From the NCBI GenBank assembly GCA_024278075.1, contig JAJRTW010000129.1, forward strand, positions 7,522-71,521: 64,000 bases of DNA, in the 5' to 3' direction. The translations under genes and the position numbers were made by a program. Position 1 is the stretch's first letter, and the number at the start of each line of letters is the position of its first letter. The stretch comes from Bacteroidota bacterium (GTDB lineage: Bacteria; Bacteroidota; Ignavibacteria; Kapaibacteriales; UBA2268). Shown one piece after another: positions 2,322 to 13,844 of this stretch. The notes beneath the pieces were generated by a model. It was not told the DNA's origin. It did not search any database and saw only the letters and a program-made list of their open reading frames with translations.

Positions 2322-2354
2322 AACTTGTCCAAAGTTTGAAACTTTGGACAAGTT
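2322..2354. repeat. 33-bp perfect palindrome AACTTGTCCAAAGTTT-G-AAACTTTGGACAAGTT (copy 1 of 3)
   Basis: Two 16-nt arms that are exact reverse complements, with a 1-nt centre. It sits just 3' of the vWA/CTD gene and is not followed by a T-run. Confidence 0.7.
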
Positions 2355-2369
2355 GAAATGAAAGCTGGG

Positions 2370-5300
2370 CTACTTTGTGAATATCACAGCCCTGGTGGCC
2401 ATGAACGGCCCGGATACTATTCTGATTATATAATATCCCGCAGGTATGTCAATGCCTGTTACATTGACTTCGTAATGCCCCGGTTTGTGTAAATCATTCA
2501 CTATTGTCTTGACATTTTCGCCCAATGTATTGATTAATTCTATCCGTGTGTTTGCCTTCAGGCCGATGGAATAATCTATTGTGAAAGCACTCGAGGCCGG
2601 ATTCGGGGCAATAGAATTCAAACTGTACTCTATCCCTGAAATGGTAATCAAACGGCCATCTACAAAACAAACACTGTCAAGCATTATCTTACGGGTTATT
2701 TCGGGCGGCTTGCAGGGAGCCTGAACTGCCCCGATAACGAATTCCGAAGTTTGAACCTCGCCCAGGCTAATAATAAAAGGTATCATCAGGATATTGCCAT
2801 TGAAAGGCGTCGGAATGCCACCAGAGCCTGTGATTTCCATAAGATTGGGCCGCAGAAAAACAGGCGTGTCCCAGGCCCACTGGCTTGCAGGCAATCCGGA
2901 CTGCAATTCTGCAACGGCATCCGGATTCATAATGGCTATCCCAGCCGAGTCCAATACCATCATGTTATCTTCAAAAGAGATGTGCAGTTTCATGTAATCA
3001 ATCGGGCCTTTGCTTAACGCAGCTATATTTGCGTTCAATGTAATTACACTGCCATTGCCGGGTTTGATGGAATAATCAGCCTCCTCCACGAACAGGTGAA
3101 TGAATTCGCCCCGGCCGGACAGTTCGCGCCTGATCTGTACGCCTTGCGAGTTGATAAAATCAATCGAAGCGCTATATTCCCTCTCCTCGGTTGGCAGAAA
3201 TGAGACTTCAATATTTTCAATGATTGATGGCTGAATAATCAAATCATCATCAAGAATAACTGCAAAAGCATCGGGGTCGCTGCCGGTGATGGAGATGCTG
3301 TCTTTATAGATAATCAGGTCAGTACTGCTCGACGGGTTTTGAATTTGGGTGGCCAATGTATCAATCTCACAAGCCAACTGCCCGCCGAACTCCATATTTC
3401 CCGAGCTGCCCGCAGTCACATCGCATTCGATGTTATAGGTGCCTTTAACAGATAAATTATAATCCGGGCCGATACCATCACCAATATCCGAATCGGAATA
3501 ATGTGCAATCCTGATTCCCGAAGTATTATCTGATTGGGGAGTGAAAGTAATATTAACAGAGATTTCGCCGCCATTGGCCGGAATTTCAAGGCCTCTTGGC
3601 GCCCCGCCGCCTGCCCAGCCGAAGTCGGCGTTGATATTGTCGAACACAAGGCTGTCGACTTTTGTTGGCACGTATATACTTGTATTTCTTAATGTCAAAG
3701 TGCCAATACTTGTGTCGCCTTTGATGGTGAATGGCCTTCCGCAATCCCAATCCACAACTTCGATTTGCGGCCATACGCCTATTCCGGCCAAAGCTCTCCG
3801 GATTGGCGTTTCAACTTGCCGGACTGTTACGATTAACGTATCGGAATAGGAATTCTCGTCCATTTCGGGCTTGAATCTCATGGGCAATAAATAAACATCA
3901 TTGGCCAAAATCTCAAGCGGAAACGATGGCAGGTCAAGTTCGAAAGCTGCCTGGGTGCCGGATTGTTCAATATTTTCGATAATGGCCGGAAGCGAGCCGC
4001 TATTGACAATTCTAATTGTAGTATCATTTACAGTATTCACGCGCCGCCGGCCCCAATCGACGGGTTCAACAGTTATATCGGAATCGAATCCTTCTCCGGC
4101 TAATTTTGTTTCGCTGTGCTCGCAATTTTCATCTAAGTTGTAGGTTATTGTTGCGGTTCTAATTCCCGGTGCCGTGGGTGTGAAAATCACTGTGAGGCTA
4201 ATGCAGCTGTCGGGCTCGAGGTTGACAGTGCCTATGCTTTCTTTTATGCTGAATTCTCCCGGGGTTGAATCATTCGTAATGATATCAGGCGTGACCGACA
4301 GTAATTCATCATTCGGGTTCCTGAAAATACAGGTAATCTCAGTTTCCAGTTCGACGCCGATATTTTGCTGGCCGACCCACACAGAGTCGATTGCTTCACC
4401 GCGGCAAATTCCCATGCCTGTAATATCGGCGCTCAGCGAATCCCCGCAGATGAAATCAACAGTCATAACAGCATTTCTGGAGAAAACATCGGAAGGCTTA
4501 ATAAATAATTCAATGTCAATTGCATTGCCGGGCGGGATTATGACGCCAATAATATTAGAGGTAATCCCAAAATCAAGTGCATCCGGCCCCGAAAATGAAA
4601 CATCGGAAATTTCAACCGGTAGTTCCCCGTCATTCTCAAGTGATTGGCTGAATACTTTGCCGCAAACAGAACCCAAAGTGCATTCCCCCAAATCAAAGTC
4701 GGGCAGATTAAACTTAGTTGATGGGGCGGTGACGGCAAATGACTCGGTAGTGAATTCGCTGCCCGGAGTAGAGCCTATTTTGGTTACGAAGATGTCCCTT
4801 TTCCCGGCACTAGTTACGGTGAATCCACCGAAGTCCCTCTGATTTTGAAAAGAGCCCGTGGAGTAGATACTGCCTTTGCTGTCGGTGTCGGTATTGGAGG
4901 AATAATTTTCGTTTATCCCCCCTTCGTATATATCAACTATGTTTAGGTCAAGGTCATAGACCGCAGTAAATAGCCTTGGGCTGGTTGCGTTTGGCAAATT
5001 TCTTTGAGGCCCGCCGGGGATTTGAATCTGAATCGAGCTTAAATACATACCCTGGACCATTATTTTAGGATTAGTGTCATCATGGACATATTTTATTCTT
5101 TGGCCCCATGCCTCAAATCTTGTGTAGAATCCTTTGGCCCCGAGGAGTGTTACTTTGGGGTTTGGCCCCTGGCTCGGATCGTATTTGGCAATGAAGCAGT
5201 ATCGTAAATCATCCTGCTCCACAGTCGGTGTCAGATTCCCGAATTTAACCGTCTGATAGCATGTGCCGGTAATATAAGCAAAGTTTGACGAGTCCGTGCA

Positions 5301-8768: not shown

Positions 8769-8855
8769 GGGAAGGTGCAGGAGTGGTTGAACTGGCACGC
8801 CTGGAAAGCGTGTGTACCTGCAAGGGTACCGTGGGTTCGAATCCCACCCTTTCCG
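8769..8855 (+). tRNA. tRNA-Ser (anticodon GGA), class II with long variable arm
   Basis: Hand-folded cloverleaf. Acceptor GGGAAGG/CCTTTCC, D stem CAG/CTG with GAGTGGTTGAA loop, anticodon stem CACGC/GCGTG with loop CTGGAAA. 18-nt variable arm, T arm GTGGG-TTCGAAT-CCCAC. CCA is not encoded. Confidence 0.8.
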
Positions 8856-9099
8856 CAATATTTATTATTTCATGGGATTTATAAAAATGGAATTAATAAA
8901 AAGAACAATTCAAGCCTCTTATCGGGGCTTTTTATTTATTTATTATCATTAATAAATTAGTATGAAGCAAATAATGTGCCGAACAGACAAGTATGTATAA
9001 GGATGGCGAATTGCCCTGCCTAATGTAACCGGAAAGAATAATTTTGATACAGTGGAAAAGTATATTATATTGAAGGAACGGAACTGCATAATTATATGA

Positions 9100-9132
9100 A
9101 ACTTATCCAAAGTTTCAAACTTTGGATAAGTT
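9100..9132. repeat. 33-bp palindrome AACTTATCCAAAGTTT-C-AAACTTTGGATAAGTT (copy 2 of 3), 36 bp upstream of the YD/CTD gene start
   Basis: Exact inverted arms. Same family as 2322-2354 and 10728-10760. Confidence 0.7.
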
Positions 9133-9168
9133 AGTCTTTAGATAATTTATTTATTCAATGGAACTACA

Positions 9169-10704
9169 ATGAAAACACGTATTACCACACTCGCTATTCT
9201 CTTTGTCATATTTAACATTATCCCCTCCAATGCTATTGACGGACAAGCACGAGCCAAACCGGGGCACATTCCATTTCCCGGAATGAATGAACAGCAAGAA
9301 CTATTTCCGTCCGGACTTGGAGAAATGAACGAAGACGGTGCGGTAAGATTTATGAAGATGGGCGATGGGGTTCAAAGCAATCCGGGTTATCTTGTTGAAA
9401 GTGTAAGAGTGTATTCATTGGTTGATAGCAATACTAAATACATATACGCTTACAATGAAAGCAATCAAATATTAACTGAAACATCCGAAGGATGGGAAAA
9501 CGGTGCATGGGTGAATTATGAAAGAATAACCAACACTTATGATTCCGATGGTAATCTCCTTACTAATTCACAGCAAAGATGGGAAAACGGTGCATGGGTG
9601 AATTATGAAAGAAGAACCAACACATACGACGAGAATAGTAATTTATTAACATGGTTATACGAATTAAAAATTAGCGAAAAGTGGGTGGAATTAATAAAAT
9701 ACACCTACACATACGACGAGAATAACAATATGTTGACATGGCTACAACAAAGCGGTATTGATGATGAATGGGTAAATGTTTTCAGATTTTCCCATACATA
9801 CGACGAGAATAACAATATATTGACATTGCAGAGAGAGGACTGGAAAAACGAGGCATGGCTAATATACATGAGATATATAAACACCTACGACTCTGAAGGC
9901 AATTTAATTACAAAAATATTTTTACAATGGGAAAATGAAGAATGGCATGATTATTCCCGAAGCACCTACGACTATGATGATGAAGGCAAACAGCTGTCAT
10001 GGGTTAAAGCAACCTGGAAAAATGAAGAGTGGGTGGATTTTAGCAGAGAAATTAACACTTACGACATTAACGGCAATCTGATACTATGGACATCTCAAAA
10101 TCTGCAGAATGAAGAATGGGTGGGTTTTAGGCAGGAAACAAACACCTACGATACCGATGGCAATCTAAGAACATCTATATATCAAAGAATAAGAAACTAT
10201 GAATGGGTCAATGATTGGAGAAAAACTTACACGTACAACACCGACGGCAATTTAATAGTATGGTCATATAGTCTTTGGCAAAACGAAGAATGGGCAGATA
10301 ATGGATTCTATTTATCTTTTGAAGACTCCTATGGAAATTCTTTTGGTAACTATTACGGTTTCAGCATAGGAATTATATGGAGGAGTGCTACTTCTGTCGA
10401 GGATGAATCGGATGACAACTTCTCCGTAACGTCTTTCCCCAATCCGTTCTCCGGTTCCACTACAATAAATTATACTCTTGACAATCCCGCCCGGGTTCGT
10501 ATTAATATTTATGACAATCTCGGAATTAAAATAACTTCTTTGATTGATGAATATCAATCCGCCGGCGAACATCAGGCGATATTCAATGCAATAAAAACAG
10601 GCAATCGCCTAAAAACAGGCAATCGCCTGTCAGCCGGAATGTATTACTATACTGTTCAAATAAATAATCAATTTGAACAAGGGAAATTATTGCTGGTGAA
10701 ATAA
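9169..10704 (+). CDS. Secreted YD-repeat-like protein with T9SS CTD
   Basis: About 12 degenerate repeats W(E/K)N(G/E)xWVxxxRxTNTYDxxGNLLT (YD-like). C-terminus FPNPFSGSTTINYTL...GMYYYTVQI. In-frame 18-bp tandem duplication KTGNRLKTGNRL inside the CTD. Confidence 0.6.
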   Translation: MKTRITTLAILFVIFNIIPSNAIDGQARAKPGHIPFPGMNEQQELFPSGLGEMNEDGAVRFMKMGDGVQSNPGYLVESVRVYSLVDSNTKYIYAYNESNQILTETSEGWENGAWVNYERITNTYDSDGNLLTNSQQRWENGAWVNYERRTNTYDENSNLLTWLYELKISEKWVELIKYTYTYDENNNMLTWLQQSGIDDEWVNVFRFSHTYDENNNILTLQREDWKNEAWLIYMRYINTYDSEGNLITKIFLQWENEEWHDYSRSTYDYDDEGKQLSWVKATWKNEEWVDFSREINTYDINGNLILWTSQNLQNEEWVGFRQETNTYDTDGNLRTSIYQRIRNYEWVNDWRKTYTYNTDGNLIVWSYSLWQNEEWADNGFYLSFEDSYGNSFGNYYGFSIGIIWRSATSVEDESDDNFSVTSFPNPFSGSTTINYTLDNPARVRINIYDNLGIKITSLIDEYQSAGEHQAIFNAIKTGNRLKTGNRLSAGMYYYTVQINNQFEQGKLLLVK

Positions 10705-10727
10705 AACTTAAACTTATTCTTGAACTA

Positions 10728-10760
10728 AACTTATCCAAAGTTTCAAACTTTGGACAAGTT
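10728..10760. repeat. 33-bp palindrome (copy 3 of 3, one mismatch) immediately 3' of the YD/CTD gene
   Basis: AACTTATCCAAAGTTT-C-AAACTTTGGACAAGTT. Preceded by partial AAACTTAT repeats. Confidence 0.65.
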
Positions 10761-10775
10761 GGCTAAGGCGATTCC

Positions 10776-11411
10776 CTACTTCAACTGCTTGGAGATAAGC
10801 TCCAATGATGAGATAGCTTTGCGTTCGTCGTCTGTTACTTCGCTTTTAACCACTCCGACACCCCGCAGATAATACTGCCTTATATTCCGGCCTGCATAGA
10901 TGTAACAGTCATAGGCCCTGCCAGCGGGGACGGTTACCGTCCTTATGTCCTCCATCTTGAATTCATAGGACTCGAATCCGATCTCAGGGAAGTCGCTAAT
11001 CTCAAACAAAACGACATAGGATTGTTGCGAATCGTTCCAAAACCCATATAGGATCATTTTATCTTCCAGCTGCCCGGCCTGGCAATATGCAAATCCTATG
11101 GCCGAATCATTATCCATAATCTCGTAGGTATTATACCGGCCGAGATCATAATAATTCGTATCGATATTCTTTTTCCAAAGCATTTGCCCGCGATTATTCA
11201 AAGTTCTGACAATCGTAACAGGGCCCGCCTCGCCGGTCTCGGGGTTCACTGTGGCATACTCCCACATATTTCCTTCTACAAGCGGGATTACTCTGTCGGC
11301 CTGCGTTTTGGCAACAGAGATAACCTTAGGCAGAGTTCTCCTCGGCGAATCGCAGCTGGTCAGATATGCGACGAATAATAGGAATATGAAATATTTAGTT
11401 ATGTGAATCAT
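10776..11411 (-). CDS. Hypothetical lipoprotein
   Basis: Lipobox LTSC after a hydrophobic N-terminus. No recognisable domain. Confidence 0.4.
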   Translation of the reverse strand: MIHITKYFIFLLFVAYLTSCDSPRRTLPKVISVAKTQADRVIPLVEGNMWEYATVNPETGEAGPVTIVRTLNNRGQMLWKKNIDTNYYDLGRYNTYEIMDNDSAIGFAYCQAGQLEDKMILYGFWNDSQQSYVVLFEISDFPEIGFESYEFKMEDIRTVTVPAGRAYDCYIYAGRNIRQYYLRGVGVVKSEVTDDERKAISSLELISKQLK

Positions 11412-12029: not shown

Positions 12030-13202
12030 CTAATTGTATTCGGGCAATGTATGTTCCCTACCCTTATTCTGCTCTTTTAAGTAATCCATCAGCGGGGCGA
12101 AATAATCAACCATCGGTTTGGCGCTCATATCCGAGCCGATGCTGGTTTGCAGCAATTCCCTCCAATCGACAGAAGCACCGGGCTTCATAATATCATAGAG
12201 GAATTTGCCGGTTTCCTTGCTGCCCCAGTAATTCGTAGAATGAGGGTCTTGCTTCAATATGTTCTTGGCGATATAATCATGGAACTGGAACAAAAGTACA
12301 TAGGAAATTGCATAGTCGTAATACTGTGCGGGGTCGTTGTTGATGTGTGTTTTCGAAGTGGCATCGCAATACTCCTCCCCGCGCTCTGCCGGAGGTACTA
12401 TCCCCTGATATTCTAATTTCAAATTCCACCATTTCTTGTTGAATTGCCCGGCATCCAGATTATTCGAATATAATTCCCACTCGAAATCAGTCATCACTCC
12501 TGCACCCCATGGGATAAAGACAATATATTCGAGAGCTTCTTTGAGCAATGTCATAGTTTCATCGGTTTTCGCATTTTCGTCGATAAGGCCAAGCCCGGTG
12601 AGGAATGGCTTCTGCAGGGAGGCAAGGCCGAGCAGGCTGCCGATTGCTTCGTGATAGCCCCTGTTGGCTCCGGTGCGAAGGACTATCGGGACATCTGGGT
12701 TTGTGTAGGCATCGAAATAATATATATGGCCGAGTTCGTGCAGAGTGGTTGCCCACCAGCGGGTGTTGTTGACAATACTCATCAGTGAACGCAGGTCGTT
12801 GTTCAGGTCGATATGCCAGGCCGAGGCATGATTGTTCTTCTTATAGTCCGCATCATCGGGAAGCGGATAGAGGCTCGACAGCTCGTAGAAAGAATGTGGC
12901 AGCGAATCCAGCCCGAGGCTCACATAGAACCTTTCGCCTTCCTTGACTATCCAGTTGCCGGGTTTTTCTTTCAATACTTCATCAAGGTTCATACCCTCGA
13001 CATTCACTAAGGCCGTCCAGTCCTGCCCCCACCTGTTGGGCATCCAGTGCGCCGGCAGCATATCCGGCACTTCCTTGCCATATTTTTCTGCCAATGTATA
13101 TCTTGCCCAGGTGTGCAATTCACGATAAAGCGGCCAGATGTCTTTAATCATACTCTGGCAAACCGCCCTCATTTCTTCAACTGTCATGCCATATTCAGAC
13201 AC
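12030..13202 (-). CDS. Peptidyl-dipeptidase A (ACE-like, MEROPS M2) catalytic portion, C-terminal 390 aa of a split gene
   Basis: HEXXH zinc motif TLHELGHIYY, GANRGYHEAIG and KWWNLKLEYQGIVPP align residue-by-residue with the ACE C-domain. Starts at GTG directly after an in-frame TAA. Confidence 0.75.
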   Translation of the reverse strand: MSEYGMTVEEMRAVCQSMIKDIWPLYRELHTWARYTLAEKYGKEVPDMLPAHWMPNRWGQDWTALVNVEGMNLDEVLKEKPGNWIVKEGERFYVSLGLDSLPHSFYELSSLYPLPDDADYKKNNHASAWHIDLNNDLRSLMSIVNNTRWWATTLHELGHIYYFDAYTNPDVPIVLRTGANRGYHEAIGSLLGLASLQKPFLTGLGLIDENAKTDETMTLLKEALEYIVFIPWGAGVMTDFEWELYSNNLDAGQFNKKWWNLKLEYQGIVPPAERGEEYCDATSKTHINNDPAQYYDYAISYVLLFQFHDYIAKNILKQDPHSTNYWGSKETGKFLYDIMKPGASVDWRELLQTSIGSDMSAKPMVDYFAPLMDYLKEQNKGREHTLPEYN

Positions 13203-13844
13203 TTAATAGGCGAAGAAATCGGAGTAATCCAAAGCCTGAACCGAAGCGTTCCTCAAGTGCCGAAGATTCTGCAATCCCTCTTTTAGGCCCTTACCCACTT
13301 CCTTGGACGCCTCCCATGCCTTCAATCTTTCCGTTAGGTCGGACGATTCGTCGAGGATTTTGTCGATGTCGTTGGTGGAAACCGGTTTGCCGTCAATCTG
13401 AAAATCAAATCCGAATAAGTCCTTGGTCTGTTTCGTATCCGCCTTGATTTTTTCCTTCACAACAGAATCAGCCGTAGCCGGGTTTCTTCCGGCGGTGTAA
13501 ATGATAGCGTCTAATTGCCTGGCCTGCAGGCCGGTTAATTTATTCTTATCGGCAAGGAAACCCTTAGCGCTTGTAATATTGTCGATACTGCCGGTGAATT
13601 TGGCATATTCTTCATTAGCTTTTTCGGCTAATTGGGCGGTTATGGTATCGCCTTCGATAATTTTAGTATTTAGCAGCCACTCCGCTTCGGAGGATTTTGT
13701 AACTAATTTCTGGATTTCAGCATTATATCCGTCCAGATAAGCCTGCACGGAATCCCTTAATTGGGAATAGTCTTCGGCGGGCTGTTCTTGTTTGCCGCAG
13801 GAAATTAGTGTGGCCAGGAGAATAAGAGTCAGGATTTTTTTCAT
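13203..13844 (-). CDS. N-terminal 213 aa of the same M2 peptidase (lipoprotein signal), terminated by in-frame TAA at 13203-13205
   Basis: Lipobox LISCGK. LKAWEASKEVGK...LRNASVQALDYSDFFAY matches the ACE N-terminal lid region. Same frame as, and contiguous with, 12030-13202. Confidence 0.65.
   Translation of the reverse strand: MKKILTLILLATLISCGKQEQPAEDYSQLRDSVQAYLDGYNAEIQKLVTKSSEAEWLLNTKIIEGDTITAQLAEKANEEYAKFTGSIDNITSAKGFLADKNKLTGLQARQLDAIIYTAGRNPATADSVVKEKIKADTKQTKDLFGFDFQIDGKPVSTNDIDKILDESSDLTERLKAWEASKEVGKGLKEGLQNLRHLRNASVQALDYSDFFAY

Follow-up and report, generated by a model that had tools for sequence, protein, structure and literature searches.

The described systems closest to the element analysed here are the REP and BIME sequences of Enterobacteria and Pseudomonas, including REPINs, together with their REP-associated tyrosine transposases (RAYTs). 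They comprise extragenic palindromes of 20–40 nt, located mostly at gene 3′ ends, which are served by a single HUH/Y1 partner; the same palindromes also flank the gene for this protein. Classical REPs reach hundreds of copies, and REP-RAYT pairs normally co-diverge. To our knowledge, the mobilization of REPs by a RAYT has never been directly shown in vivo for any family, and the cellular role of RAYTs and their palindromes is a long-standing question. A CRISPR-like role for RAYTs has been speculated upon by one group, with no physical link (PMC5581495). In Bacteroidetes and Cyanobacteria, Quentin et al. (2018) delineated TnpAY1 subclass 2.4 (Bertels RAYT group 4), which is characterized by proteins of ~194 aa, an NH[IFV]H HuH motif, and a hypervariable β3-αC insertion caused by in-frame REP copies inside the tnpA-REP gene; the REPs of this subclass are reported as GT[AG]G-footed or "double foot" (PMC6006769), and its flanking 16-mers are scarce, at ~14 per replicon (PMC5581495). 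Two further systems employ related principles. In the IS200/IS605 family (IS608, ISDra2) and its transposase-less derivatives, a Y1 HUH enzyme recognizes subterminal hairpins in single-stranded DNA, and passenger genes are possible, while the integron attC site is an imperfect palindrome at the 3′ end of a cassette gene that is recognized as a folded single strand.

A 33-bp palindrome occurs three times in the 64-kb window (the whole stretch of DNA that was analysed; Table 1). It belongs to a Bacteroidota-wide family of constant anatomy and characteristic placement that is linked to a RAYT gene and to cas loci. With a probability of roughly 0.68, the palindromes are REP-like, non-autonomous single-strand hairpin elements made or moved in trans by a RAYT; we infer the catalysis and mobilization by the RAYT, as well as the presence of such an enzyme in the genome from which the window derives.

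The positions given for the three palindromes in a preliminary description of this DNA were confirmed: they are the strongest short-loop inverted repeats of the window, with none expected from 100 dinucleotide-preserving shuffles. The three copies differ slightly in sequence, and the single sequence quoted for all of them is that of copy 2. Copy 1 possesses a G/C pair at arm position 6 and its partner, a compensatory change relative to copy 2, and also differs at the center base. The arms, described as exact 16-mers, are so in copies 1 and 2; this does not hold for copy 3, which displays one arm mismatch. Each copy is predicted to fold into a 15-bp stem with a 3-nt loop, with folding energies of -15 to -19.5 kcal/mol for the RNA and -11 to -14.7 kcal/mol for the DNA (z-scores of -3.6 to -7 for RNA and of -3.6 to -7.9 for RNA and DNA overall). 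The stem is A+T-rich, perfect or near-perfect, and free of bulges. All three copies are intergenic and span at most 8.4 kb of the 64 kb, and no degenerate copies were found in the window at up to eight mismatches. Flank alignment revealed no sequence shared among the three copies beyond 33 bp, indicating that the unit consists of the 33 bp only; a longer element was thus rejected. An Rfam search of the window at gathering thresholds returned four tRNAs and nothing else, with no known RNA family at the palindromes.

Table 1. Palindrome copies and adjoining features, in coordinates of the 64-kb window
Feature	Position	Strand	Remarks
Palindrome copy 1	2322..2354	none	AACTTGTCCAAAGTTT-G-AAACTTTGGACAAGTT; perfect
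vWA protein with T9SS C-terminal sorting domain (CTD), 1556 aa	2370..7040	-	3′ end adjoins copy 1; context only
tRNA-Ser(GGA)	8769..8856	+	Context only
Canonical hairpin-plus-T-run terminator	8912-8930		After tRNA-Ser
Palindrome copy 2	9100..9132	none	AACTTATCCAAAGTTT-C-AAACTTTGGATAAGTT; perfect
T9SS CTD protein, 511 aa	9169..10704	+	Bracketed by copies 2 and 3; context only
Palindrome copy 3	10728..10760	none	One arm mismatch: A.C (+ strand), G.T (- strand)
211-aa protein	10776..11411	-	No Pfam match; 3′ end adjoins copy 3; context only

Copy 1 is located 15 nt 3′ of the stop codon of the vWA/CTD gene, as had been noted. Copy 2 lies 243 nt 3′ of the tRNA-Ser gene. In agreement with the preliminary description, 36 nt separate it from the ATG of the downstream 511-aa CTD gene, homologues of which carry RHS/YD repeats. 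Copy 3 sits between the convergent 3′ ends of this CTD gene, 23 nt (rather than 24) past its stop codon at 10704, and of the 211-aa gene, 15 nt away. The 211-aa gene was considered as a possible RAYT and rejected, given that no similarity to RAYT was detectable. The 64-kb window contains no RAYT or cas gene and no integrase or transposase; hence, the gene for the partner enzyme would reside in another part of the genome. CTD genes account for four of the 41 ORFs of the window, and a palindrome copy adjoins two of these four, an adjacency that arises by chance more easily in a stretch this rich in CTD genes.

Beyond the window, the palindrome core was retrieved in at least 119 8-kb blocks from ~100 Bacteroidota genomes (Bacteroidales, Marinilabiliales, Chitinophagales, Cytophagales, Flavobacteriales, Sphingobacteriales, and Saprospirales). 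The unit is invariably 33 bp long and of the form AnCTTTTCCAAAGTTT-N-AAACTTTGGAAAAGnT. The search pattern was a 21-nt core that omitted six outer positions per side. These unsearched positions are 64–95% conserved, with conservation ending sharply at 33 bp, while the center base is free. The unit ends are A-n-C...G-n-T, with position 2 variable and often unpaired, and arm variants are mostly compensatory, including the G:C versus A:T pair seen in the window. Among the matches listed, crude ORF calling places 121 of 135 sites between genes, and many of the 14 scored inside an ORF fall in the RAYT gene. Placement is biased: of the 3′ ends of adjacent genes, 48% are no more than 30 bp from a copy versus 18% of 5′ starts, and the gaps that hold copies are convergent in 28 cases versus divergent in 6 (binomial p ~2e-4 by hand calculation), both among the matches listed. 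The genes just 5′ of most copies have unrelated functions, and most copies are solitary and adjacent to housekeeping genes.

These distributions bear directly on the leading idea of the preliminary description, in which the palindrome serves as an operator for a dimeric transcription factor of T9SS cargo genes. The perfect two-fold symmetry, the copy upstream of the cargo gene start, and the proximity of copies to half of the window's CTD genes are features that such an operator would display. However, an operator would not be expected to favor 3′ ends and convergent gaps as these copies do, the compensatory arm changes preserve pairing rather than a fixed recognition sequence, and the adjoining genes have no common function. 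In other genomes, the Por_Secre_tail (T9SS sorting) domain was detected in only 2 of the 79 genes whose 3′ end falls no more than 60 bp from a copy, and none of the neighbors of the window's A/G variant on metagenome contigs encode a CTD; the eight such contigs have nothing else in common with the window. The proposed enrichment next to CTD genes gave way to many sites with no CTD association, which is essentially the outcome that the preliminary description had named as refuting its idea, and the suggestion of an mRNA hairpin specific to secretion cargo is unsupported on the same count. The operator idea is very improbable and close to refuted. The bracketing of the 511-aa gene is best read as incidental or as a product of local clustering with no cargo-specific role, owing to the preference for gene ends combined with clustering of copies in this region. 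For the window, the hint of a cargo-specific regulatory signal is thereby removed.

A second alternative places the function primarily at the RNA level, with the hairpin selected at each gene end as a 3′-end mRNA stabilizer or a U-tract-independent terminator or pause site, and the RAYT link secondary. The strong bias to positions 0–30 nt past stop codons and to convergent gaps is in line with such a role, as are the stability of the RNA hairpin, the presence of copies between all genes of several cas operons, and an orthologous intergenic site kept in two genera. Moreover, E. coli REPs are known mRNA stabilizers (cited in PMC6006769). For hairpin function alone, however, there would be no need to keep one 33-nt sequence constant throughout a phylum. 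Mismatches on the transcribed strand include 7 G.U and 10 A.C pairs, with no excess of G.U. The preliminary description had stated that the palindromes are not classic intrinsic terminators, and this is borne out: no T-run follows any window copy, nor is one seen on the transcribed side of 62 sites oriented by transcription, where the mean is 2.6 T over the 8 nt following the hairpin versus 2.7 A over the 8 nt preceding it. A Rho-independent terminator was rejected on the missing U-tract, the A+T-rich stem, and a terminator scan that omits all three copies. Many copies lie 13–20 nt before the next co-directional start codon, which leaves no space for a new promoter if the hairpin terminated transcription, and the window harbors ordinary terminators; the one after the tRNA-Ser gene (Table 1) indicates that these are in use in the genome. 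We consider a primary RNA-level function unlikely. As REP-like elements, inserted copies would fold in the mRNA 3′ end and may incidentally stabilize the transcript or pause transcription.

When the proteins encoded around the copies were clustered, only four recurrent neighbors emerged among the matches listed: RAYT, Cas1, Cas2, and Cas9. The RAYT, the one neighbor that is enriched, is a ~200-aa HUH/Y1 protein. Its only NCBIfam match is the model NF047646 ("REP-associated tyrosine transposase"), which aligns with almost the entire protein (E 1e-18 to 1e-19), and its sole PDB match is 4ER8 (TnpA-REP); some members were named RayT by JGI. The catalytic motifs are intact, with HUH (NHFH) and Y (YIHxNP) motifs present in 120 of the 120 best homologues. 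The palindrome occurs on one or both sides of RAYT genes, with ~19 of the at least 119 blocks and all five independent look-ups in other genomes displaying a palindrome-flanked RAYT gene. The palindrome is also found within the gene itself: a palindrome-encoded peptide appears just past the HUH motif in 102 of the 120 homologues, with two or more reading frames in use (FPKFxTLEK or FSKVxNFGK), implying that the DNA, and not the peptide, is what is kept. In 17 of 22 loci, cas9 and cas1 of a type II CRISPR-Cas operon flank the RAYT gene, and several cas operons contain palindrome copies between every gene. A crude Mantel test of RAYT against Cas1 and Cas9 gave r 0.68 (p 6e-4). Carriers of a RAYT in cas9 operons include the cultivable Draconibacterium orientale, Macellibacteroides fermentans, and Saccharicrinis. 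Since adjacent arrays have unrelated repeats of 36–47 nt and the copies are irregularly spaced, the palindrome itself was rejected as a CRISPR repeat.

Compared with the REP-RAYT systems of Enterobacteria and Pseudomonas, the present family diverges in several respects. The classical GTAG or CGTC tag is absent from the hairpin foot, which is a point against the REP-like reading. In place of an imperfect hairpin or a spaced REP doublet, the unit consists of a 33-mer with almost complete symmetry, and its RAYT gene is located inside CRISPR-Cas operons. The palindrome retains one sequence phylum-wide, whereas REPs are species- or genus-specific, and RAYT protein identities range from 32 to 86%; a constant palindrome paired with a drifting RAYT is unusual and, like the apparently low copy number, speaks against the REP-like reading. 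Copy number appears low: three copies occur in 64 kb here, elsewhere mostly one exact-core block was found per long contig among the matches listed, and several genomes have two to three separate blocks each (again among the matches listed). The family appears to be near subclass 2.4, although assignment to 2.4 versus 2.6 was compared by description only. Phylum, protein size, HuH motif, in-frame insertion, and the apparently low number of flanking repeats all match subclass 2.4. The palindrome, in contrast, carries neither a GT[AG]G foot nor a "double foot", and in the proteins the conserved W of the WQ motif is replaced by F, while the tyrosine motif reads YIHxNP instead of YIxNNP. Linkage to cas genes is not mentioned in the description of that subclass (PMC6006769).

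Whether the palindromes delimit mobile segments was the remaining suggestion of the preliminary description, which had raised a site-specific recombination or cassette-boundary site. Part of this stands, in that the palindrome is a sequence-specific DNA element tied to an HUH/Y1 transposase of RAYT type, an enzyme class that breaks and rejoins DNA. As a full alternative, a hairpin-bounded segment (here palindrome-CTD gene-palindrome) would move as a unit in an IS200/IS605-like or loosely attC-like manner. Y1 transposases work on hairpin-bounded single-stranded DNA (IS608), a copy stands on either side of the window's cargo gene, and copies edge variable accessory modules in some related genomes. 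For example, locus L118 has the order geneB-palindrome-geneA, while the orthologous L111 contains an additional 1.5 kb comprising a 171-aa gene, a palindrome, a two-gene toxin-antitoxin-like module, and another palindrome; the two L111 copies have a 35-bp flank in common. Likewise, L124, L126, and L128 display differing toxin-antitoxin modules past the same palindrome downstream of a methylmalonyl-CoA mutase gene. Against cassette movement, the L124/L128 breakpoints do not coincide with palindromes, most copies are solitary, the window lacks an integrase or transposase, and no homologue of the bracketed gene above 46% identity was found (the best is encoded on a 2-kb contig). The perfect palindrome also lacks the left/right asymmetry that IS200/IS605 ends require: those elements possess two different imperfect hairpins, defined cleavage sites, and a target tetranucleotide, whereas here the same symmetric palindrome occurs singly, with no conserved flanking target or duplication seen. 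Gene-plus-palindrome arrays in L111 and L128 are reminiscent of integrons, but attC sites vary in sequence and length, while the present element is fixed, is mostly solitary beside core genes, and has no R/L box or extrahelical bases. An attC or gene-cassette identity was rejected on the absence of bulges and of an IntI integrase among the proteins scanned around copies. We regard movement as bounded cassettes as quite unlikely.

The REP-like reading accommodates these observations as follows. Like TnpA-REP of E. coli and TnpA of IS200/IS605, the RAYT would recognize the folded single-stranded hairpin, cleave the adjacent DNA and religate it, and in this way seed or mobilize copies in trans, probably into tolerated intergenic spots that mostly lie just past stop codons. 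In the window's own genome, the RAYT gene would most likely be located in a type II CRISPR-Cas locus, flanked by cas9 and cas1. A sign of turnover is that related genomes differ in gene content right beside copies. Around the 33-mer, direct repeats of 1–8 nt are about as frequent as expected by chance, on which basis a MITE was rejected for want of target-site duplication, and no clean pair of empty and filled sites was found. At the orthologous site in two genera, the palindrome is kept although the intergenic DNA around it has diverged beyond alignment, hinting at selection on individual copies, which may reflect host function rather than pure selfish turnover.

A further step, which we hold to be rather unlikely and offer tentatively, is that the 33-bp hairpin is the DNA ligand of an HUH nuclease that forms the conserved fourth gene of many Bacteroidota type II-C operons (cas9-RAYT-cas1-cas2) and acts as a working accessory of CRISPR immunity, not a hitch-hiking selfish element. 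If so, the RAYT-palindrome pair might serve in prespacer processing or ssDNA capture, in self-marking or as a decoy, or in control of the operon; the window's copies would then be functional sites or by-products, and genes bounded by hairpins, potentially including the cargo gene, could be mobilized by this activity. This family offers an unusually fixed, easily synthesized 33-nt hairpin in the cas9 operons of cultivable bacteria, which makes the question of RAYT function directly testable.

Systems of the REP-RAYT kind are already known, while this family and its cas9 linkage appear undescribed in the literature searched. That search, weak evidence given that most subscription journals were outside its scope, found no paper combining RAYT, TnpA-REP, or COG1943 with cas9 or cas1 loci, and the palindrome sequence strings occur neither in the papers covered nor in two text supplementary files of PMC6006769. 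For annotation, the analysis supplies a phylum-wide motif, which should be masked or labeled as such and not as an operator or terminator. Among mobile replicons, the plasmids of PLSDB gave no match to the palindrome and phages one spurious partial match only; one contig in IMG/VR carries a copy.

A pattern search of the window recovered the 33-bp palindrome at the three positions given in a preliminary description of this DNA, with none expected in 100 shuffles. The copies, numbered in coordinate order, are the top short-loop inverted repeats of the 64-kb window, and their 16-nt arm was found nowhere else in it at ≤2 mismatches. The sequence originally quoted is that of copy 2, from which copies 1 and 3 deviate: in copy 1, arm position 6 and its partner are G and C, a compensatory pair, and the centre base also differs. 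The arms, described as exact 16-mers, are so in copies 1 and 2; copy 3 carries a single mismatch (A·C on the + strand, G·T on the − strand). All three fold into a hairpin whose 15-bp stem carries a 3-nt loop, at −15 to −19.5 kcal/mol for RNA and −11 to −14.7 kcal/mol for DNA. Alignment of the flanks found no common DNA among the three copies, and the unit is therefore exactly 33 bp. The spacing reported for copy 2 upstream of its bracketed gene is correct, and that for copy 3 downstream is 23 nt, not 24. Inside the 3′ part of the same gene lies a tandem 18-nt unit, (A)GGCGATTGCCTGTT(TT), at 10596-10631 (− strand); a terminator scan listed it as a hairpin of 16 pairs whose T-run is on the opposite strand. 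An adjacent ORF pair at 12030-13844 (− strand) jointly spans a peptidase M2 (angiotensin-converting-enzyme-like) profile; the only thing separating the two is an in-frame TAA (13203-13205), pointing to a pseudogene, read-through or a sequencing error.

Positions of the palindrome in the window and of cas-linked transposase (RAYT) loci elsewhere (L numbers, blocks or contigs from other genomes or metagenomes; CTD, T9SS C-terminal sorting domain)
Feature	Source	Position	Context
Copy 1	window	2322-2354	15 nt past the stop of the 1556-aa vWA/CTD gene
Copy 2	window	9100-9132	36 nt 5′ of the CTD gene ATG; tRNA-Ser and a canonical terminator upstream of the copy
Copy 3	window	10728-10760	flanked by the stops of two convergent genes, the 511-aa CTD gene (23 nt) and one of 211 aa (15 nt)
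cas9-RAYT-cas1	L019	1374-7803	
cas9-RAYT-cas1	L023, L028, L031, L042, L051, L063, L066, L108, L116, L119, L129-L137		
HU-HIG + DUF6155 pair	L129	5946-6939	
HU-HIG + DUF6155 pair	L131	5956-6906	
HU-HIG + DUF6155 pair	L134, L135	equivalent positions	

One genome per prokaryotic species was scanned with the exact 21-nt core TCCAAAGTTTNAAACTTTGGA, a query that skews the sample toward intact copies. Matches fell in at least 119 8-kb blocks, nearly all from Bacteroidota and spanning at least seven orders. Among the matches listed, the twelve flanking positions outside the search pattern are 64-95% conserved and conservation drops sharply at the edges, giving the consensus AnCTTTTCCAAAGTTT-N-AAACTTTGGAAAAGnT. 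Its centre base is unconstrained, its position 2 varies and is frequently unpaired, and the remaining arm changes are for the most part compensatory. The window carries the rarer form, in which arm position 6 is A or G rather than T; eight metagenome contigs share this variant pair, and on one of them three copies lie within 3.4 kb. The GenBank phage and PLSDB plasmid collections gave no copy. A perfect consensus copy lies at 2607-2639 of an IMG/VR contig classed as viral (L120), and in a Bacteroidales MAG the palindrome sits within a longer, ~170-bp repeat (~82% identity) present in at least three places (L045 958-1130; L114 4749-4921 and 5266-5424).

Clustering of the proteins flanking the listed matches yielded four recurrent families: Cas1, Cas2, Cas9 and a protein of ~200 aa. 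The last is identified from its sequence as a putative REP-associated tyrosine transposase (RAYT, HUH/Y1 type) because it matches nearly the full NCBIfam model of that name (NF047646; E 1e-18 to 1e-19, below the equivalog cut-off), its sole solved-structure match is E. coli TnpA-REP (4ER8), some of its >2,200 database clusters bear the JGI name RayT, and its HUH (NHFH) and Tyr (YIHxNP) motifs are kept in 120/120 best homologues. The palindrome flanks RAYT genes and, in 102 of these 120 homologues, also encodes a peptide directly after the HUH strand. This peptide reads FPKFxTLEK or FSKVxNFGK, and a few RAYTs have hybrid or duplicated versions; since the reading differs, it is the nucleotide palindrome that is retained, not the peptide. 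Quentin et al. (2018; PMC6006769) describe a palindrome inside the RAYT gene in TnpAY1 subclass 2.4 (Bertels group 4), but the REPs of that subclass have GT[AG]G feet, which the 33-bp palindrome lacks. Its sequence is absent from two supplementary files of that paper and from searchable papers. The best-supported reading is a REP-like single-strand hairpin element, for which a RAYT-type HUH enzyme would make or move copies in trans; we infer RAYT catalysis, mobilisation of the copies and that the window's genome encodes a RAYT.

With surrounding ORFs called mechanically by a crude caller, 121 of 135 sites among the matches listed are intergenic, convergent gaps outnumber divergent ones (28 vs 6), and 48% of adjoining 3′ ends lie within 30 bp of a site, versus 18% of 5′ starts. 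Such a preference argues against the operator first proposed, and a role specific to T9SS cargo fares no better. Among the matches listed, 2 of 79 genes ending ≤60 bp from a copy in other genomes encode a Por_Secre_tail domain, the other 77 being housekeeping enzymes of all sorts; these genes show no CTD enrichment. On metagenome contigs, no gene next to the window-type variant has a CTD; these genes include an ornithine/arginine decarboxylase-type enzyme, a GH141 glycoside hydrolase, a SpoIID-like protein, methylmalonyl-CoA mutase subunits, an EamA transporter and toxin-antitoxin genes. The two CTD adjacencies in the window are not compelling, given that the window is itself CTD-rich (4 of 41 ORFs). 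Both the operator and the cargo-specific readings were rejected, and the three window copies are best explained by the usual gene-end preference together with local clustering.

With each site read in the direction of its upstream gene, the hairpin has no T-run 3′ of it, which extends beyond the window the earlier remark that the palindrome is not a classic intrinsic terminator. Among the matches listed, G·U is not preferred over A·C mismatches on the transcribed strand (7 vs 10); an RNA-level side effect is plausible and finds no support in the available tests. On the upstream gene's sense strand, the centre base is C in 24 cases and G in 9 (among the matches listed; binomial p ~0.014), a weak bias that may reflect a strand-specific step during insertion or selection. 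No target-site duplication was found around the 33-mer among these matches.

That the palindromes are cassette boundaries is a minority reading. In local comparisons, copies adjoin variable DNA in some places and are themselves conserved in others. A locus common to two Draconibacterium species is geneB-palindrome-geneA in one (L118) and 1.5 kb longer in the other (L111), the extra DNA comprising a 171-aa gene followed by a two-gene TA-like module with a palindrome on either side; both copies in the longer locus have a 35-bp flank in common. Three related metagenome contigs (L124, L126, L128) likewise have differing toxin-antitoxin modules after the same palindrome. In contrast, the palindrome persists, with a compensatory change, at one intergenic site shared by Indibacter and Arthrospiribacter, although the spacer around it is no longer alignable.

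Among the matches listed, 12 of 17 RAYT-bearing blocks with enough flank have the RAYT flanked by cas9 and cas1 in a type II locus, with palindromes in the intergenic gaps between cas genes. Five further RAYT homologues, picked mainly for long contigs, all share this position, which brings the total to 17 of 22 examined loci and makes it an arrangement of many Bacteroidota. RAYT and Cas1 covary in pairwise identity (Mantel r 0.68, p 6e-4, species tree not controlled). The CRISPR arrays at the 12 loci are ordinary, their 36- to 47-nt repeats are unrelated to the palindrome, and three RAYT genes are placed among housekeeping genes instead. A working role of the palindrome with the cas-encoded RAYT is a minority reading. 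We found no paper in the searchable literature reporting the cas9 linkage; Bertels et al. (PMC5581495) raise a CRISPR-like role of RAYTs as speculation only.

Macellibacteroides-type loci, and several of the five further ones, also carry genes for an HU-like DNA-binding protein (HU-HIG) and DUF6155, in the former between cas9 and the RAYT; in L131, cas1 and cas2 are separated by a gene of the 23S_rRNA_IVP family. One type II locus from Weeksellaceae (L020 664-6236) comprises cas9, a degenerate palindrome, cas1, cas2 and another palindrome without a RAYT gene, and may be a remnant following RAYT loss. In L023, one palindrome (4317-4349) lies within a long cas9 ORF near its 3′ end and a second just past the stop; the internal copy may have inserted in frame into cas9, or the ORF may have been called too long.
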